Origin: Polyangia bacterium
GTDB lineage: Bacteria; Myxococcota_A; Polyangia; JAAYKL01
NCBI GenBank assembly: GCA_050304755.1
Contig: JBNLED010000252.1
Coordinates: 2,210-66,209, forward strand
Length of the DNA: 64,000 nt
Direction of reading: 5' to 3'
Positions 1,864-10,732 of the stretch are shown piece after piece (the stretch's first letter is position 1; each line of letters opens with the position of its first letter). Under the pieces are notes generated by a model. The model was not told where the DNA came from, did not search any database, and saw only the letters and a program-made list of their open reading frames with translations. Made by a program: the position numbers and the translations under genes.

Positions 1864-2172
1864 TTTCAAGACAGACGGGCCAAGCCCCATCCCACCGCCC
1901 CTCAAAGTCATAGGTCCTGGAGATCCTGAAATATTCTAACGTGCTTCGTTTGTCCGTTGGATTATTACAGGTTTACAAGAAATAAGAAACCGCAAGAACC
2001 GAGAAACCGCAAGAACCGACGATACTTCCCTTTGTGGGGAAAACGACGTGATATAGATGAGAACTGGGGGTCTCGGGATTCCTGTTTCTTTCTTTCGCCG
2101 GTAGACACAAAAAACCGAGAAGGTTTCAGTGGGGTTAAGCAAATAGTGAACAACTATGCGGAAGGAAATAAG

Positions 2173-3639
2173 ATGACTAAGAAGGCTATTCACAGTGTTG
2201 TGTCTGTCCTGGTGGTTATAAATGTCTCTCTATTGGCGCCCATTTCAGAAGCCGAGTCCGGTGCTGAGTTGTATCGTACCGAAGCCCATCGCTACGGTAA
2301 ATTTGAAGCCAGGTTGCGATTCGCTCCAGGAAACGGCGTTGTCTCGACATACTTCCTGTGGAAGGTCGATTCAGAGTTGTCGGATGTCTATTGGAATGAG
2401 CTGGATATGGAGAAGATTACAGACAACTGTAACGGATACTGGGCCAATGCCATCTACGGGTTACCGGAATCCAACCACGGCTTCAACATCACTGCGCCCG
2501 ACAACCTATGCGATAACTTTCACGTCCATGCATATGAATGGACGCCGGACAGAGCCATCTGGCTACTGGACGGCAATCCGGTTCGAGAAGGTACCGGAGA
2601 GGAGATCGCCGCATTTGCCGACAACGCTCCAGACGGCATGCAATTTCGTTTCAACCTTTGGGTGGGAAATCAGGACTTTGGTGGTAATCTCGACCCGTCT
2701 ATCCTGCCGGTTCACCAGATTATCGACTGGGTTCAATTCTCGGAATACACACCGGGCGCGGGAGACAATGGGACGGATTTTACCTTTCTTTGGAAAGAGA
2801 ATTTCAATGGCTCCGAGTTGCCCTCGGGGTGGGCGACCGGAGATTGGGATTCAGCGTACGGACTCTCCAAATTCTCTCCCGACAATGTAAACCTCCAAGA
2901 AGGATGTGTGATTTTGTCTCTCACCGCAACGGGAAGTGAGGGGTATAATGACATCGACATAGATACGGATGGGGATACCGATACGGATACGGATGCGGAC
3001 ACCGACGCGGATACGGATGCGGACACCGACGCGGATACGGATACGGATGCGGACACTGACGCGGATACGGATGTGGACACCGACGCGGATACGGATGTGG
3101 ACACGGATGCGGACACAGATGCGGACGCGGACACAGATGCAGATGCGGATACGGACACGGACGCAGATGCGGACACGGACACGGACACGGACGCAGATAC
3201 TGATTCCGACACCGACGTTGATTCCGACTCTGATGTTGATTCCGACACTGATGCTGATTCCGACACTGATGCTGATTCCGACACTGATGCTGATTCCGAC
3301 ACTGACGTTGATTCCGATACTGACGCCGATTCCGATACTGACGCCGATTCCGACGCTGACGCGGATTCCGACGCTGACGCGGATTCCGACGCTGACGCGG
3401 ATTCCGATGCTGACGCGGATTCCGATGCTGACGCCGATTCCGACGCTGACGCCGATTCCGACGCTGACGCCGATTCTGATGCTGACGCCGATTCCGACGC
3501 TGACGCGGATTCAGATGACGGCACCGTGATTGATGGAGGGGTGGGGGCAGACGATGAAGGAGGATGCGGGTGTTCGGCGGTGGGAATCGATACCCGTAAT
3601 GGATCGGTCTTCAGAGAGCTGCTGAAATTGCTTTTCTGA
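2173..3639 (+). CDS. Secreted GH16 beta-glucanase-like protein with Asp-rich repeat stalk and MYXO-CTERM-like tail
   Basis: Signal peptide; YGKFEARLR and WNELDME (ExDxE) GH16 motifs; [11 protein letters not shown]; long DT/DA/DS repeat; C-terminal GGCGCS...LLKLLF; RBS-like GAAGGA upstream of ATG 2173. Confidence 0.85.
2960..3515 (+). repeat. Coding low-complexity tandem repeat encoding (D-T/A/S)n, with 6/18-bp periodicity
   Basis: Units such as GCCGATTCCGACGCTGAC and GCGGATACGGAT repeated in tandem. Confidence 0.9.
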
Positions 3640-3962
3640 CAGGCCGCGTTGTCTTGCGGTCGAGGTGGATGCCATGGGGGTTCAGGTTCGCTTGGGCCAC
3701 ATCGAAGGAAGTGCTCTCGGTGACCTGACGAGCGACAGCTGCCTGGAGTGCAGAAGTGGCTCCGACATGGCGCAACTCCTAAAACCTTCATATTTGTCGT
3801 TAGTTATAGCTGAAACGAGGCCGTTTGAGCCTCGAGCGCCGTACAGCCTCCGCGTCCGGTAACGGTTCTCGAAACGGCAAAACTATGAGATGATAAGGCG
3901 GATTCCCAATGCGGCGCGATCCGAAACGGCGGCGCGGGATCGGGGAATCCGGCGAGGATTTG

Positions 3963-4493
3963 ATGAGTGACAAGAAGAGACCTGTCACCGACGCGAAAGC
4001 GCCGGGATATCCGTTGTTCGGGGAATTCGTCGTCGACAGACGGTCCTTCATGAACACCTCGGTCATCGGCGCGGGCGCCATCCTGAGCGGATGTGACGTG
4101 CTCGATTCCCTCTTCGGACAAAGAAGAACCCTAGGGGAGCCCATGCCGGTGGTCAAACCGGGAGCATCGGCGACCGCGCCGCCTGCCGAAGGCGTCCGTC
4201 CCGCGCCTCCCGCTGAGAGCGAGCGTCCCGCGTCAGACGGCAACGATGCGGTCGAGGCGGGCGGTGGGGAGGGCGCCGACACCCCGGTGAGAAACGATCC
4301 GCCGCCGGACACCGATACGTCGGACAACGGTTCCCCGGGGCGTCCCGTAGACGACGATCGCCGCTTCCGGCTTAAGGGCAGACGCCGCGCCCCGCAGCCC
4401 CCGAAACCCGCCCCGAGGATCCCCGGGGGGAAGCGGCCCCCGGCGCCACCGCCGCCCGAGCTCCCGAAGCCGCCGGGGGATACAGAAAAGTAG
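3963..4493 (+). CDS. Pro-rich lipoprotein-like protein, putative radical SAM substrate
   Basis: N-terminal PVTDAKAPGYP, DRRSF twin-arginine-like motif, lipobox LSGC, disordered Pro/Asp-rich body; stop codon 3 bp before the rSAM ATG. Confidence 0.7.
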   Translation: MSDKKRPVTDAKAPGYPLFGEFVVDRRSFMNTSVIGAGAILSGCDVLDSLFGQRRTLGEPMPVVKPGASATAPPAEGVRPAPPAESERPASDGNDAVEAGGGEGADTPVRNDPPPDTDTSDNGSPGRPVDDDRRFRLKGRRRAPQPPKPAPRIPGGKRPPAPPPPELPKPPGDTEK

Positions 4494-4496
4494 GCG

Positions 4497-5579
4497 ATGG
4501 ATCTCACGCTCTTTCTGACCCATCGATGCAACCTGGCGTGTACGTACTGCTACGGCGGTTCGAAGTTCGATCGGACCATGGATCATTCACTCATTCAGAA
4601 GGGGGTGGATTTCGCCTTCTCATCGGGCCATGTGAGGATCTCGTTCTTCGGGGGGGAGCCATTCCTGGCGTTCGAGAAGATGCGGTTCGCGGTCGAGTAT
4701 GCCAATCGCATATCAGCACAGCGGGGGATCCCCATCGACTATTCCGTGACCACCAACGGCACCCTCTGGAACGACGAGATCGCCGCGTTTCTGAAAGAGA
4801 ACCGGTTCCATCTGGCCGTCAGCATCGACGGCGTAAAGGCGTCGCACGATATCACGCGCCCCCGGAAGGACGGCACCTCCGCCTATCCGATCGTTCAGGA
4901 GACCCTGCGACGGGCGGTGTCGACCCTGCCGTCGGTGGAGACCATTTCGGTCATCGATCCGGACAACGTCTCCCGGCTGTCCCAGGGCTTCCTGGCGCTG
5001 CTCTCGACCGGCGTCGGGCGCCTCAGCTTCAATATCAACACCCGCGCCGACTGGAGTGATCCGGCGCTCGAACGGCTGGCGAGCGCGCTCGGCGAGCTGT
5101 CGGCGGAATACGTGGATCAGTATCGATGCGGGACGCGGTTCGCCCTTGATATCATCGATCATAAGATCATCACCCACCTCAAGGGCGGGTATGCCGGGTG
5201 CGACCGATGCCGGTTCGGGGAGGGCGAGCTCTGCCTCACCCCGAAGGGAAACCTCTATCCCTGCGAGCGGGTCGTGGGGGAGGACGACACCGCCGAACTC
5301 GTCATCGGGCACATCGACACCGGCGTCGATCGCTCGAAGGTCGCGCGGCTGGTCTCCGCCAAGGACCGCCTGGAAGACGAGTGCCGGGCGTGCCGGTACC
5401 GCCACCGCTGCATGCACTGGTGCGGCTGCGTCAACTTCGAGACCACCGGTCGCGTCGGGAGCACCTCCGCCGCGGTGTGCCGGACCGAGCAGCTGATCAT
5501 CGAGGCGGCGGACCGGGCCGCCGAGCGGTTGTTCAAAGAGCGGAACCCGCTGTTCCTGAGCCGGTTCTATCTGCCCTGA
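4497..5579 (+). CDS. Radical SAM/SPASM-domain enzyme (anSME/peptide maturase-like)
   Basis: CNLACTYC (CxxxCxxC), FFGGEP, TTNGTL, SIDG; SPASM cysteines CDRC...YPC and CRACRYRHRCMHWCGC...C. Confidence 0.9.
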   Translation: MDLTLFLTHRCNLACTYCYGGSKFDRTMDHSLIQKGVDFAFSSGHVRISFFGGEPFLAFEKMRFAVEYANRISAQRGIPIDYSVTTNGTLWNDEIAAFLKENRFHLAVSIDGVKASHDITRPRKDGTSAYPIVQETLRRAVSTLPSVETISVIDPDNVSRLSQGFLALLSTGVGRLSFNINTRADWSDPALERLASALGELSAEYVDQYRCGTRFALDIIDHKIITHLKGGYAGCDRCRFGEGELCLTPKGNLYPCERVVGEDDTAELVIGHIDTGVDRSKVARLVSAKDRLEDECRACRYRHRCMHWCGCVNFETTGRVGSTSAAVCRTEQLIIEAADRAAERLFKERNPLFLSRFYLP

Positions 5580-5754
5580 GTCGGGCGGGGGAGAAAGAAG
5601 GGCGCGTCGCGACACCCTCCCTCGGGAGTTGCCCCGCTCCCCTCCCGCCGATATAGTGCCCGGAGTGATAGGAATCCATCGTACCGCTGATCTCGAGGGC
5701 GCCGCCCGCTGCGGAGGCACGGAGACACTCGGCCGGCCGAGACCCGGACGGGCG

Positions 5755-7617
5755 ATGACGCGGCTGCGGCTATCGTTCTCGATCCTCCTGGCCGCCTCCG
5801 GCTGTTACCGCTCCGCCTCGCCGGGGGAGGGCGACACCGCGAGCCTTTCGGGGTGCGACGGGTGCGATGAGAACGCGCGGTGCGAAGAGACTTCCGAGGG
5901 GGCGATCTGCGAGTGTCTGCCCGGCTGGAGCGGAGACGGCCGCGCCTGCGAGGATATCGACGAGTGCGCCGCCGGCGCGTCCCCGTGTGACCCGGACCGC
6001 CCCTGCACCAACACTCCCGGCGGCTACACCTGCGGCTGCCCTCCGGGGTGGGCGTTGAGCGACGACGGGACCGCCTGCCTCGACGCCTTCTGGGCCCTGC
6101 AGATCACGGCCGGGCGCGAGTTCTCCTGCGGGGTGCAGCGGGACGGCGCGATCCGGTGCTGGGGGGACAACCTGAGCGGCCAGTCCGCGGCGCCCCCCGG
6201 AACGTTCCGCCAGGCGGATGCCGGCTCTGAGCACGCCTGCGGCGTGCGGACGGACGGGACGGCGGTCTGCTGGGGGAGAGACAGCTTCGGTGAATCCACG
6301 CCGCCCGACGGCCGCTTCCGACAGGTCGCCGCCGGGATGCGCCACACCTGCGGCCTCCGGGAAGACGGGGCGGTGGCGTGCTGGGGCGACGACGAGTACG
6401 GCCAGTCGTCACCGCCGGACGGCGCGTTTACCCAAATCACCGCCGGCGCGCAGTCCACCTGCGCGGTCTCGGCGGACGCCGAGGTCGTGTGTTGGGGCGA
6501 CGACCGCTTTGGACAAGCCACGCCCGTCGGGTTCCGCCAGGTGGACGCCGGCTTCAACCACACCTGCGGCGTGCGGACGGACGGCGCGGTGGTGTGCTGG
6601 GGGAGCAACTACTATGGGAAGTCCACGCCCCCTGACGGCCCGTTTGTCCAGGTGGCGGCCGGCACGGACCACACCTGCGGGGTGCGGCCGGACGGCGCCG
6701 TGACGTGCTGGGGCGACGACGCATGGGGCCAGTCCACTTCCCCCGACGGTCGCTTCCTCGAGGTGGCCGCCGGGAGCTGGCACACCTGCGGGGTGAGGGA
6801 CGATCGCACGGTCGTCTGCTGGGGAGACCCCCGCAGGGGGCGGTGTACGCCCCCCTCCGGATCGTACCGCCAACTCTCCGTCAAGTACGGCCACCTGTGC
6901 GCGGTGAGGACGGATGATACGGTCCTTTGCACGGGAGATGATCATTTCGGACAATCCTCCCCCCCGGCCGGTGCGTTCGGGCAGGTGGCGGCGGGCAATC
7001 TCTTCAGCTGCGGCGTGAAGCGGGACGGCGCCGTGGCCTGCTGGGGGGATGACTCGCAGGGCCAGTCCGCGACCCCCGGCGGCGCCTTCCGCCGGGTCTC
7101 CGCCGGCGCGGCGCACGCCTGCGGGGTGAGAGAGGACGGGGCGATGGTCTGCTGGGGGTACGACTACTACGGTCAGTCCACCCCGCCCACCGGCGCGTTT
7201 CTCGAGGTCTCCGCCGGCAACGTTCACACCTGCGCGGTGCGCGCGAACGGGATGACGGCCTGTTTCGGCGGGGACCTCTATGGGGAGTCCGCGCCGCCGG
7301 CGGGCGTGTTCGAGACGGTGTCCGCCGGTTTCAGTCACTCTTGCGGGATACACGCGGACGGAACGCTCGCGTGTTGGGGGAAGGATGACCAGGGGCAGTC
7401 CACGCCGCCGGACGGAACCTTCGTCGACATCTCCGCCGGAACGAGTCACACCTGCGGAATCCGCGCGGACGCGACGGTCGCCTGCTTCGGGGATAACGCG
7501 TGGGGGCAGTCCACGCCGCCGGACGGCGCCTTCCTCCATATCTCCGCTGGTTCGAACGAAACCTGCGGGGTGAGGGCGGACGCGACCCTCGCCTGCTGGG
7601 GGGGCATCGTCCGGTGA
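5755..7617 (+). CDS. Lipoprotein with EGF-like domains and RCC1/BLIP-II beta-propeller repeats
   Basis: Lipobox ASGC; CECLPGWSGDGRACEDIDEC and CTNTPGGYTCGC (Ca-binding EGF-like); about 14 repeats of AGxxHTCGVRxDGxxxCWG. Confidence 0.85.
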   Translation: MTRLRLSFSILLAASGCYRSASPGEGDTASLSGCDGCDENARCEETSEGAICECLPGWSGDGRACEDIDECAAGASPCDPDRPCTNTPGGYTCGCPPGWALSDDGTACLDAFWALQITAGREFSCGVQRDGAIRCWGDNLSGQSAAPPGTFRQADAGSEHACGVRTDGTAVCWGRDSFGESTPPDGRFRQVAAGMRHTCGLREDGAVACWGDDEYGQSSPPDGAFTQITAGAQSTCAVSADAEVVCWGDDRFGQATPVGFRQVDAGFNHTCGVRTDGAVVCWGSNYYGKSTPPDGPFVQVAAGTDHTCGVRPDGAVTCWGDDAWGQSTSPDGRFLEVAAGSWHTCGVRDDRTVVCWGDPRRGRCTPPSGSYRQLSVKYGHLCAVRTDDTVLCTGDDHFGQSSPPAGAFGQVAAGNLFSCGVKRDGAVACWGDDSQGQSATPGGAFRRVSAGAAHACGVREDGAMVCWGYDYYGQSTPPTGAFLEVSAGNVHTCAVRANGMTACFGGDLYGESAPPAGVFETVSAGFSHSCGIHADGTLACWGKDDQGQSTPPDGTFVDISAGTSHTCGIRADATVACFGDNAWGQSTPPDGAFLHISAGSNETCGVRADATLACWGGIVR

Positions 7618-7930: not shown

Positions 7931-10732
7931 TCACTCGACCGTGAGGGTGACCTCTGACCCGTCGTAGGAGACCGTCTGGTCCGACTGCGCGGTCACCTCG
8001 ATACCGCCGCCGTGGCCGGGACCGACCCGGACGATGTTGAAGGTCCGGCTCGAAGGCATGCCGCTGTAGCTCCCGGTCCGCTCACCGATGGTCAGCTGCC
8101 CGGCGGCGTCGTCCCAAGCGAAGGGTATCAGGGAATACTGCCCCTCTTCGTAATCGTAAGAGTCCCCTTCGTCCTCGTACAGCCTGAAGGCGCCGTCCCG
8201 TCCTTCGTAGATTCTTATCTCCAGGGGATCGATGCTCTCGGTGGCGTACTGGATTTCGGGCCCCATCGGCACGATCGACCCGGCCTTGACGAAGAGGGGG
8301 ATCATGCTGAGCGGCGCGTCCACCGTGTCGCGTCGCCCCCCTTCGATGGCCTCCCCCGTCCAGAAATCATACCAGGTGCCGCCGGGCAGATAGACCGACC
8401 GGCTGGTCGCCCCTTCGGTAATCACCGGGTTGACGAGGATCGCGGGGCCGAAGAGGAACTGATCCTTGATGTCGAAGACCTCCGGGTCGTCCGGGTAATC
8501 GAAGACCAGCGGCCGCATCATGGTGTAACCGTCGTTCGTGACCCGCCAGGCCAGCGAGTAGATGTAGGGCATCAGGCGATAACGCAGGATGTCTATCTTC
8601 AGGAGGTTGGCCTTGGTGTCGGCGCTCCACTGATCGCCGTAGAGCTCCCTCGAGCCGCCGCCGTGGATCCGGAAGATGGGACAGAAGGCGCCGTACTGGA
8701 ACCAGCGCGTGAACACCTCGTTGCTCTCGCGGGTCGTCCAGTCCACCCGCCCGGGATGTCCCCAGTAGCCGCCGATGTCCGTGGTCCAGTAAGGGATGCC
8801 GGCGGCGACGAAGTTCAGCCCCGCCGGGATCTGCCGGGCCAGCGTCCCGAAGTCGCAGTCCACGTCCCCGGACCAGCAGGTCGTGGCGTATCGCTGCTGT
8901 CCGGCGAAGCCGCTGCGGGTGAGGACGTAGACGCGCTTGTCGTTCGGACCGATGTCCCGCCACCCCTCGTACAGGGCCTGGCTGTGACCGATGGGATAGG
9001 CGTTGATGAAATGTGCCCCCTTGCCGACGGCCGTATCCACCCCCCGCATGTCGATGCTGTCCGGATACGGCTGCGGCTCGGTGTTGTCCGCCCAGATGCC
9101 GTCCCAGCCGTAGCGCCCGATCAGGCGGTCGTAGGTCTGCTGATACACGAGCGTCCGCGCCTCGCTGTCGAACGTGTCATAGAAATGGTGGTCCCCCCCG
9201 CTCGGATAGAGCGCGCCGATGTCGTTCAGCGCGTTGTAGTTGTCCTGGTCGTCGGCGCTCGGAGGGGAGCCGTTGTACCTATAGAGCGGCCAGATGGAGA
9301 TCATCGTGTGCACGTTGGCGTCGTGCATCTCGTCGATGAGGGCCCCGGGGTCCGGGTAGCGGGATTCATCCATGAGGTGGGAGCCCCAGGAGTAGGGCGT
9401 CCAGTAGTCCCAGTCCTGGACGATGCAGTCCACGGGGATGTTGTTGTTGCGGTAACCATTCTTGATCTCCAGCAGCTCGGACTGTCGGGCATACTTGTCC
9501 TTCGACTGGAACAGCCCGTAGGCCCACTTGGGGAAGAGCGGGGCCGCCCCCGTGGCTGTCCGGTATCCGGCGACCACCCGATCGAGCTCGGGACCGTAAA
9601 AGAAGTAGTAGTCCACCATCTCGCCGGCCTCCGAAACATAACGATACTTCGTATTGAAAGACTCGCCGCCGTAGAAATTGGAGGTGGAGTAGTTGTCAAA
9701 GAAGATCCCGTATCCCCGATTGGAAATCAATACGGGGACGACCGTATCGGTGTTGACGTTTATAAGGCGACGGTTGCTCCCCTTGCGGTTCATCACGCCG
9801 TCCTGATACTGGCCGAGCCCGAACAGCGCCTCGTCCTCGGGGGAGTTGAACACGCTCTCGATCTCATAGGTGGCCACGCCCTCCACGTTGGTCGGACGGG
9901 CGCTCTTGCTGTCCTCGGACAGCACGAGGTTGTCTTCCAGATCGGTGTAGCTGACCAGGCCGCTGTTCCAGTCGACCTTCGCCTTCATCCGCGTGGTCGT
10001 GATGACGACGGTTTCCCCCTCCTCGCCGACGCAGAACTCGGTGGCCCCCCAGTCATTGCTGATCGACAGCGAGGTCGTCACCGGCAGCTCCGAGGCTGTC
10101 GTATATTGAACCCGGAAGATGTCCGCCGTGCAGACGCGCACCTTCATCAGACCGTCACTCAACGTGAAGGTGACGCCGGTTTCATCGATTGTATATGGTC
10201 CGGTAGGATCCACAGGGTCGCAGACGAGCTCGGGGACTGTGTCCGTATCCGGCGCCGTGCCCATATCCGTCACCGTATCGCTGTCGGCATCGGCGTCCCC
10301 ATCGACGTCGCTATCGGTGTCCACGTCCGTATCCATGTCAGTGTCCGAATCTCCGTCGGTATCGGTATCCGTATCGGTGTCCGTGTCCGTGTCCGTGTCG
10401 GTGTCGGTGTCCGCATCCGCGTCGGCGTCCGCATCCGCGTCGGAATCCATGTCCGCGTCGGAATCCGTGTCGGTGTCTGAATCCGTATCCATGTCGGCAT
10501 CCATATCCGCATCGGAGTCCGTGTCCGTGTCGGAATCCGTATCCGTGTCGGCATCCGTGTCGGTGTCTGAATCCGTGTCGGCGTCTGAAAAGCTGTCGGT
10601 CGACGTATCCGTGTCCTTTGTCTGCCCGTCGGATGCACACCCGAGGACAACCCCCGCGAGCGCCGGCCAGAGCCACAGGTGCCAGACCCGTCGCGCCGCC
10701 GCCGTATGGGTGTGGATATTGTTGATGTTCAT
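7931..10732 (-). CDS. GH31 alpha-xylosidase/alpha-glucosidase lipoprotein with N-terminal Asp/Thr stalk
   Basis: Lipobox VLGC; DT repeat; [19 protein letters not shown] (nucleophile), WSGD, WTTDIGG (acid/base), [28 protein letters not shown]; RBS AAGGAGG. Confidence 0.9.
10275..10615 (-). repeat. Coding low-complexity (DT/DA/DS/DM)n repeat
   Basis: Tandem GTGTCC/GCATCC/GAATCC units on the + strand. Confidence 0.85.

Follow-up and report, generated by a model that had tools for sequence, protein, structure and literature searches.

What is the substrate of a radical S-adenosylmethionine (rSAM) enzyme whose gene begins 3 nt behind that of a putative lipoprotein? The question is raised by a two-gene locus in a 64,000-nucleotide stretch of DNA (the window) from a Polyangia bacterium (GenBank assembly GCA_050304755.1, contig JBNLED010000252.1, positions 2,210 to 66,209 of the forward strand). 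The locus comprises a 176-aa open reading frame (ORF) and a gene for an rSAM/SPASM enzyme. The original prediction, made from the sequence alone, had described the two as a candidate undescribed protein-modification system resembling those of peptides that are ribosomally synthesised and then modified post-translationally (RiPPs). The upstream ORF is a real gene and a conserved partner of the rSAM gene, and the two products are very likely a cognate enzyme-substrate pair. As a whole the two genes are best explained as a self-contained cassette for the maturation of a protein or peptide, a reading that we regard as fairly probable. rSAM/SPASM maturases and lipoprotein-routed RiPPs are each known, and it is their combination that appears to be new.

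The pairing was followed through 92 loci, which comprised the best 80 of 567 confirmed matches in one-per-species genomes, the loci of relatives and the window. In the relatives, all ORFs located directly upstream of an rSAM orthologue (42-50% identity) started alike: a basic segment and the pattern P-x6-P-x-Y-P were followed, in most cases after RR-x-F, by a hydrophobic stretch with a Cys. A strict regular expression (P-x-[YFW]-P...RR) missed most clades and profiles were used instead. An iterated leader profile was run against the six-frame ORFs of the 92 loci (1.08 million aa) and gave 69 matches at E ≤ 0.011, distributed over 44 loci and all on the rSAM strand; the first opposite-strand match had an E value of 0.085. 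Scoring with a 16-residue matrix of the signal-peptide n-region (score ≥ 16) located 64 matches within 2.6 kb upstream of the rSAM gene, 6 directly downstream and 2 elsewhere, the last in a search space 4.6 times larger. The matrix was trained on upstream matches, and the downstream matches and several of those in Akkermansia came from loci outside the training set (new downstream matches included loci L011, L054, L063, L085 and L087).

By strict criteria a precursor was present in 54 of the 92 loci (46 upstream, 8 downstream), and precursor-bearing loci occurred in every major clade of a tree of the 92 enzymes. The original prediction had allowed that close rSAM homologues might prove to be unlinked to similar ORFs; these 54 loci show the linkage. 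Copy number was determined for 52 of the 54 positive loci, with one precursor in 34, two in 11 and three in 7. Clustering of all flanking ORFs of the 92 loci yielded no other common family, no protease and no transporter. An rSAM of this type occurs once in the window genome, and so does a leader-bearing ORF (E 1.3e-11; next match 0.07). By their record titles the loci belong to 'Deltaproteobacteria'/Myxococcota, Akkermansia and other Verrucomicrobia, Planctomycetota, Riflebacteria, Clostridia, Hydrogenedentes and others. The arrangement of the genes varies. In some clades the leader-bearing gene lies directly downstream of the rSAM gene (L054, L064, L072 and L087, also L063, L082 and L085). 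At the loci of the closest rSAM homologues (L014/L015, 50% identity, also L002-L004) three tandem leader-bearing paralogues of 200-245 aa precede it, and the signal of one such paralogue ends in an Ala-x-Ala-type sequence instead of a lipobox Cys.

Nothing in the precursors is more strongly conserved than P-x6-P-x-Y-P. Tyr16 and Pro17 (window numbering) were invariant in 40 of 40 aligned N-termini, and the lipobox Cys was at least 90% conserved. In the window precursor residues 4-17 are KKRPVTDAKAPGYP and residues 31-44 are NTSVIGAGAILSGC, the latter ending in the lipobox Cys44. Searching 1.84 billion cluster representatives with the leader profile recovered 197 proteins of 48 to 361 aa at E ≤ 0.001, so that the family is large, with 197 clusters at 50% identity from the leader alone. 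The profile ends two residues past the Cys and therefore carries no information on the mature part. The top 149 of these proteins exclude that of the window and include some identical to the locus ORFs used for the profile. Among them the leader Tyr was residue 14 in 85, residue 16 in 27 and between residues 14 and 17 in 126, the Cys closed a hydrophobic stretch in 139, and [RK]R-x-hydrophobic followed the Tyr-Pro in 90. Of 77 sequences, 53 satisfied a lipobox regular expression in an overly strict form and 58 the form that replaced it.

A complex of the enzyme with leader residues 1-32 was modelled utilizing alignments of 76 rows (enzyme) and 40 rows (leader). The ipSAE interface score was 0.67, compared to 0.01 for the best of three controls. 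In a benchmark 58 of 80 solved complexes had attained this ipSAE mark, as had 2 of 110 mismatched pairs, counts that are only a rough guide to this model because its own alignments were used. The runs shared at least 85% of their contacts and the predicted local distance difference test (pLDDT) value of the partner was at least 62. Leader residues 2-11, 14-19 and 22 were predicted to contact the enzyme. The contacts of lowest error were those of Tyr16/Pro17 (leader 14-17) with enzyme residues 339, 342, 343, 345-347 and 227, while leader residues 5-8 were placed against residues 299-301, 328 and 332. The enzyme residues contacted by Tyr16 (339, 342-347 and 227) include D339 and L345, which, like Y358, show at least 90% conservation, and F353 does not vary. 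The predicted dock is away from the CxxxCxxC/SAM cluster site, and the C-terminal helix on which it lies looks family-specific because the alignment with the maturase CteB ends at position 339. The model supports binding of the leader to the enzyme, and the n-region of the signal peptide is likely to be that leader. The proposal that the PV...PxYP segment is a recognition leader is thus strengthened by both the invariant Tyr-Pro and its predicted dock.

The window precursor matched no Pfam or NCBIfam family, and a word-based homology search recovered only the precursor itself. A full-length homologue is the 152-aa database protein P0146 (30% identity, pairwise E 5e-17), in which all three Gly-centred sites of the window precursor are kept in place while the spacers between them have diverged. 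The 132 residues past Cys44 contain 30 Pro and 2 Phe, neither Phe being kept in P0146, and no Cys, Trp or Tyr. The only Tyr/Gly pair of the precursor is G15-Y16 in the leader, and Tyr-Gly occurs nowhere. In the family as a whole the mature parts range from 17 to more than 400 residues and differ completely between clades apart from the repeated Gly-centred sites. They are Pro-rich and basic in the window, consist of Asp/Thr-rich acidic repeats in the nearest genera and form peptides of 47-130 aa in Akkermansia. In Planctomycetota and Clostridia the precursors are proteins of ∼280 aa in which the segment HGEGRG..GC....PPVFLSEEEA is conserved and which end in ..QVRDF..WLK.QGVI. Such class A precursors (L058, L066, L070, L078, L080, L084, L086, L088 and L090) carry a folded domain with ..APIF.HGEGRG..GC....PPVFLSEEEA.. 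that had no Pfam match, and an ESM Atlas search with one of them gave 'hypothetical protein' clusters only.

Core statistics were calculated for 117 leader-selected proteins without the class A domain (14,114 residues, 1,253 Gly). Relative to Gly, Pro was enriched at +5 (z 10.3) and +3 (z 5.8), near expectation at +4 (z 1.0) and depleted at +1 (z -7.8). Hydrophobic residues were enriched at -2 and +2 (z 3.9 each), as were Gly-Gly doublets (z about 7). As read from these sequences, the contrast between adjacent offsets cannot stem from local composition. The composite pattern [LIVMT]-x-G-x3-[APVIL]-P occurred 83 times in 52 of the 117 proteins against an expectation of 14.6 ± 3.9, and 0 of 300 shuffles reached 83. 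In 13 proteins (1.5 expected) no more than 10 residues separated the end of a site from the C-terminus. The family consensus is hydrophobic-x-G-x-hydrophobic-x-(A/P)-P, and the position before the Gly is variable, being taken by A, P, G, D, R, K or L. The window precursor has two canonical sites, LKGRRRAP and IPGGKRPP, and one variant, TLGEPMP, which falls outside the composite pattern because its Pro residues are at +2 and +4. The three sites had originally been described as G-x-x-x-P: that they are Gly-centred holds as a feature of the family that is kept in P0146, but the spacing is G-x4-P. LKGRRRAP had been considered off by one and is in fact canonical, since the family enrichment of Pro is at +5 and not +4. 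On balance we favour, by a little, the Gly-centred sites as the sites of modification.

The degree to which the n-region outstrips everything past the lipobox in conservation raises another arrangement, in which P-x6-P-x-Y-P is itself the modified core, for example at the invariant Tyr, and the released modified signal peptide is the product, with the lipoprotein little more than a carrier. Enterococcal pheromones derive from lipoprotein signal peptides, and the 40/40 Tyr-Pro, its fixed distance from Met1 (Tyr14 in 85 of 149 proteins) and the unrelated mature parts of different clades would all suit such a product. We consider it unlikely, as Tyr16 in the complex model lies beside residues 339-347 of the C-terminal SPASM helix, away from the CxxxCxxC/SAM site, a strongly enriched Gly motif would be needless in an irrelevant carrier and the three window sites are conserved in P0146. 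The n-region as leader and the Gly-centred sites as targets remain the preferred assignment.

The window enzyme belongs to the radical SAM superfamily (PF04055, 57.2 bits, cut-off 29.5) and its family retains all cluster Cys and the GGEP SAM motif. Eight Cys of the SPASM region are invariant or at least 90% conserved among 76 homologues, with the spacing C238, C256, C296-x2-C299-x5-C305-x3-C309 and C328, plus C311. The full SPASM Cys set noted earlier therefore stands on this alignment; the Pfam model PF13186 was not reported for the enzyme at E ≤ 0.01. Among the NCBIfam models PapB (NF047865) matched best, with 187.4 bits where its cut-off is 340; the QhpD, nif11-type, SCIFF and anSME models fell short of theirs by more, so that the enzyme is under every curated NCBIfam cut-off. 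The PapB model gave 183-231 bits, likewise below the cut-off, for ten homologues from other phyla. At least 953 homologues were found at E ≤ 1e-30 among 8,000 candidates scored; their database names are 'radical SAM protein', 'uncharacterized protein' and, once, 'anaerobic sulfatase-maturating enzyme' (anSME). The family profile aligned to residues 99-445 of CteB (5wgg, 193 bits), and the N-terminal recognition domain of CteB is missing in the family because the alignment starts only at residue 99. With CxxxCxxC at residues 11-18, this agrees with the earlier statement that the enzyme has no N-terminal RiPP recognition element (RRE). An AlphaFold2 (AF2) model of the enzyme had a pLDDT of 96.1, and Foldseek template modelling (TM) scores were 0.80-0.82 for CteB, 0.79 for anSME and 0.75 for ChlB.

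These features bear on a second alternative, in which the pairing is real and non-catalytic for the Gly sites: the rSAM would mature another substrate or a cofactor, or serve as an export-linked chaperone, and the upstream proteins would be ordinary tagged lipoproteins. Such a role would sit well with the 38 of 92 homologous loci in which no precursor was detected, with the one homologue named as an anSME and with locus L072 (title: Akkermansia muciniphila MAG), where a 467-aa protein with a Tat-like N-terminus is encoded upstream of a clade member. The retention of every cluster Cys and of GGEP argues for a catalyst, however; anSME and the other curated families were missed by wide margins with no sulfatase nearby, and the flanks hold no third conserved gene while the two genes are 3 nt apart. 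We judge a non-catalytic pairing to be quite unlikely, and catalysis by the enzyme on its neighbour is retained.

A third alternative takes the family scores at face value. Cys44 would be cross-linked to a nearby Asp/Glu carbon (C44-x3-D48) in a thioether of the ranthipeptide or QhpC type, and the protein would remain unlipidated. The best family matches are the PapB, QhpD, nif11-type and SCIFF maturases, CteB is the closest solved structure, the window reads C44-D-V-L-D48 in agreement with a Cys-X3-Asp spacing, and the class A relatives carry a conserved Cys before PPVFLSEEEA. On its sequence, this class A Cys with the acidic residues that follow would allow a thioether in class A. Against a thioether at Cys44, 139 of 149 proteins have the Cys in a classic lipobox context, where a hydrophobic stretch ends, the spacing of the residues that follow is not conserved across relatives, and the scores are about half the PapB cut-off. 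In CteB a coordination site at an auxiliary cluster binds the substrate Cys. No Cys of CteB aligns with the eighth conserved Cys of the window enzyme, Cys311, which may occupy that site; Cys311 might complete auxiliary cluster I, as expected where no substrate thiol is ligated. A thioether at Cys44 is accordingly given very little weight, and the preferred reading keeps Cys44 for the lipid.

That reading supposes the following order of events. The cytoplasmic rSAM/SPASM enzyme would recognise the first ∼17 residues of the signal peptide of its substrate through P-x6-P-x-Y-P, and the leader would dock on the family-specific C-terminal helix; docking there, we propose, would make an RRE domain unnecessary. 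A 5'-deoxyadenosyl radical would then modify the repeated Gly sites, mainly LKGRRRAP and IPGGKRPP and probably TLGEPMP. The modified protein would be exported, by means of the Tat-like RR motif in the window and of Sec-type signals in other clades, after which Lgt would lipidate Cys44 and signal peptidase II (Lsp) would remove the leader. Housekeeping machinery would in this way stand in for the protease and transporter that ordinary RiPP clusters dedicate to these steps, and would yield a disordered, Pro-rich polypeptide with a lipid anchor and a few radical-installed modifications. The sequence leader binding, modification, export is the one that we infer. The twin-arginine-like motif and the lipobox LSGC after a hydrophobic stretch are both present as first described (DRRSFM; Cys44), TatC is encoded in the window genome and the Tat hidden Markov model (HMM) TIGR01409 passes in the relative L062 (20.2, cut-off 16.7). 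Lipidation at Cys44 is likely. As the core is without Cys, Trp and Tyr, a thioether, sactionine or cyclophane would not be formed unless the lipobox Cys were used. As to the chemistry, our best guess is that the enzyme cross-links the chain to itself over a short distance, or acts on a backbone C-alpha, at the invariant Gly or beside it. The variable residue before the Gly would suit an event that is independent of side chains, or a cross-link that joins the hydrophobic residues at -2 and +2 or runs to Pro.

Several observations weigh against this mechanism. The nearest characterised relatives of the enzyme all make Cys thioethers, which the window substrate cannot do unless via the lipobox Cys. 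The score of the complex may partly reflect the general arrangement of the rSAM-leader complexes already solved (CteB, SuiB and ChlB). No precursor met the strict criteria in 38 of the 92 homologous loci, of which six had less than 400 nt of upstream sequence and six had weak matches; none was found in the available flanks of several small clades, of Akkermansia L031, L038 and L042 or of the close homologue L021. TIGR01409 did not match the window ORF at E ≤ 10, although DRRSFM is present. The composite core pattern was defined after viewing the same sequences and occurs in just 52 of 117 proteins; the Gly-anchored scan is free of this after-the-fact bias. Enrichment in the locus-derived set (56 sequences) was modest, with hydrophobic residues at -2 (z 3.1) and Pro at +5 (z 3.4), and G-x-P, G-x2-P and G-x3-P each had z ≤ 2.0. 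An unanchored Gibbs search for a single site of width 8 in each sequence settled on the class A segment PPVFLSEE instead of a Gly site, with an information content of 11.4 compared to 8.8-9.2 in shuffles. The modified site may also differ between classes, since about a sixth of the leader-profile proteins (26 of 149) have the folded class A domain with its conserved Cys.

Features of the cassette are collected in Table 1. As first reported, the 176-aa ORF stops 3 bp ahead of the rSAM ATG, the TAG at 4491-4493 being followed by GCG and the ATG at 4497. Contigs of run X3, from another sample, differ at three bases upstream of the precursor start (3910, 3911 and 3926). The changes at 3910 and 3911 abolish an alternative ATG at 3909 and leave the ORF from 3963 intact, and the coding part of the precursor is identical in the contigs of all four DNA runs compared. 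That this ORF is a chance open frame beside a genuine rSAM gene is effectively refuted: several frames of the region, which has 70% GC, hold long ORFs (one of them antisense, 243 aa, 3800-4531), and the ORF has no family match and was alone in the word-based search, but conservation of its N-terminus extends across phyla, with frame and strand the same, P0146 is homologous over the full length, a Shine-Dalgarno sequence precedes its start, its stop lies 3 nt from the rSAM ATG and the same sequence was recovered from other samples. A scan for consensus promoters and terminators found nothing for the cassette and one promoter-like site beyond the rSAM stop.

Table 1. Positions in the window of the precursor gene, the rSAM/SPASM gene and their parts
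Feature	Positions	Strand	Basis or remark
Shine-Dalgarno-like GAGGA	3954..3958	+	4 nt 5' of precursor ATG 3963; read from sequence
Precursor gene, 176 aa	3963..4493	+	ORF call; leader/signal peptide and Pro-rich, probably disordered mature part
Putative n-region leader, residues 1-17, P7-x6-P14-x-Y16-P17	3963..4013	+	conservation, docking model
Twin-arginine-like DRRSFM, residues 25-30	4035..4052	+	read from sequence
Hydrophobic region and lipobox LSGC (Cys44)	4053..4094	+	sequence; Cys conservation in family
Gly-centred site 1, TLGEPMP, residues 56-62	4128..4148	+	aligned to TAGEPVL in P0146
Gly-centred site 2, LKGRRRAP, residues 137-144	4371..4394	+	canonical; aligned to VKGKRMPP in P0146
Gly-centred site 3, IPGGKRPP, residues 153-160	4419..4442	+	canonical; aligned to RPGTARAP in P0146
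Radical SAM/SPASM gene, 360 aa, no RRE domain	4497..5579	+	Pfam, NCBIfam, AF2 model, Foldseek
CxxxCxxC radical SAM cluster motif, Cys11/15/18	4527..4550	+	sequence, family alignment
SPASM region, Cys 238, 256, 296, 299, 305, 309, 311, 328	5208..5480	+	alignment of 76 sequences
C-terminal helix, residues about 323-358	5463..5570	+	predicted docking site of leader Tyr-Pro

No sulfatase, protease or transporter is found among the neighbours in the window, as had been noted; a GH16 gene lies upstream and an RCC1/EGF lipoprotein gene and then a GH31 gene downstream. The GH16 glucanase-like protein (1957-3639, +) and the GH31 glycosidase (7931-10732, -) have long linkers of Asp-Thr/Asp-Ala/Asp-Ser repeats, which score against models of staphylococcal SD-repeat adhesins (e.g. 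ClfA, 114 bits, far below cut-off). Asp/Thr-rich spacers resembling these linkers also occur in the precursors of the nearest rSAM relatives. The GH16 C-terminus (∼3560-3639, +) has a Gly/Cys tail (..GGCGCS..) and a short hydrophobic end and resembles a sorting signal, for which no NCBIfam model was reported at E ≤ 0.01. The product of the gene 3' of the rSAM (5755-7617, +) carries a lipobox, EGF-like domains and 12 RCC1 repeats (PF13540, E 8.7e-105). This gene is preceded by the promoter-like site, at 5629-5657, and is not kept beside the rSAM in other loci.

Comparison with characterised systems was made family by family. The sulfatase maturases resemble the window enzyme in size, in having no RRE, in a SPASM fold whose auxiliary clusters are ligated by Cys throughout (TM 0.79) and, as proposed here, in acting before export on proteins that are exported. 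In the sulfatase motif modified by anSME, Pro stands two residues after the target. The window sites differ in carrying Gly where that motif has Cys or Ser, no sulfatase adjoins the genes, and TIGR03942 scored 97.7 bits against a cut-off of 349; the enzyme does not group with sulfatase maturases, an outcome that the original prediction had left possible. QhpD was rejected on score (TIGR03906, 162.7 bits, cut-off 453). Triceptide and cyclophane maturases were rejected likewise, the YhhB, GrrM, AmcB and FxsB models giving 53-62 bits against cut-offs of 310-445 and the core having no Trp or Tyr. ChlB (PDB 9gm3, TM 0.75; JACS 2025, as cited in PMC12912966) is an RRE-less rSAM/SPASM enzyme of ∼375 aa that binds the leader of its precursor directly, as is predicted here. 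It makes aromatic-to-C-beta cyclophanes, however, whereas Trp and Tyr are absent from the window core and neither of its two Phe is conserved.

The ranthipeptide (SCIFF) maturases of the PapB/CteB type are the best relatives in sequence and fold. They have the same three [4Fe-4S] motifs and act, guided by a leader, on a peptide substrate that is encoded next door and has repeated core sites. PapB substrates are defined by repeated Cys-X3-Asp/Glu motifs. The window enzyme differs in scoring below both cut-offs (NF047865, 340, as given above; TIGR03974, 121.6 bits, cut-off 425), in lacking the ∼98-residue recognition domain of CteB and in the extra Cys311. Its substrate differs in a core with no Cys past the lipobox and in carrying a signal peptide and lipobox. 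A sactipeptide was rejected for the window as the mature part has no Cys. The earlier statements that no Cys or Trp follows the lipobox, and that the substrate fits no sactipeptide, ranthipeptide or Trp-cyclophane pattern, are both confirmed by the core composition, the latter also by family scores below cut-off.

The NCBIfam 'rSAM/lipoprotein system' (TIGR04133 rSAM_w_lipo and TIGR04134 lipo_with_rSAM) likewise pairs an rSAM with a small lipoprotein. It was rejected for the window, with TIGR04133 at 23.7 bits against 425 on the rSAM and no match of TIGR04134 (cut-off 39.8) to the precursor; neither model is mentioned in the full-text literature searched. A different rSAM of the same genome (contig C81:12068-13114, -, locus L104) scored 373.7 bits with TIGR04133, again under 425; another rSAM-lipoprotein pairing, unrelated to the first, may thus be present in the genome. 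The combination of an rSAM/SPASM maturase with a lipoprotein-routed RiPP was not found in Pfam or NCBIfam (June 2026 release), nor were the leader tag and the Cys-free Gly-centred core. The same holds for the full-text literature searched, which leaves out most subscription journals and supplements, and an earlier description elsewhere is possible. The description of the system as undescribed thus holds for the pairing and not for the lipoprotein-RiPP logic, which has been published, though only for MNIO enzymes. We tentatively propose a phylum-spanning, unnamed class of rSAM-modified lipoproteins and lipopeptides with an n-region leader and a new modification at Gly sites that depends on neither Cys nor aromatic residues. 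With similar reserve, the class would include the 47-130-aa peptides of gut Akkermansia and would employ housekeeping Tat/Sec, Lgt and Lsp as exporter and peptidase. As the family reaches Akkermansia of the animal gut, its cell-envelope products could matter for interactions with the host or within the community.

The closest parallel in logic is that of the DAG-RiPPs. According to the available text of PMC13056109 (PNAS 2026), lipobox-bearing RiPP precursors of MNIO enzymes were shown experimentally to be matured by the lipoprotein pathway, which is thereby already published as RiPP exporter and leader peptidase for MNIO systems. As in the scheme proposed here, a cytoplasmic enzyme modifies a precursor with a lipoprotein signal, Lgt and Lsp lipidate it and remove its N-terminal part, and no dedicated protease or exporter is needed (PMC13056109, available text). 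The lipoprotein signal of that system may have its counterpart in the window, where the hydrophobic stretch and LSGC can be read from the sequence and the Cys is conserved in the family. The mining pipeline of that study was applied to MNIOs only, and the word 'radical' does not occur in the text available. DAG-RiPPs differ in utilizing an MNIO (DUF692) and Cys-based motifs (PMC13056109, available text), while the window enzyme is a radical SAM/SPASM protein and its family has a dedicated n-region tag and many substrates of 130-300 aa. If the reading given here is true, a signal peptide would be seen to double as a RiPP leader, radical modification would take place on substrates without any of the residues used by the known cross-linking classes, and the 'RiPP-lipoprotein' paradigm would be extended from MNIO to radical SAM chemistry.

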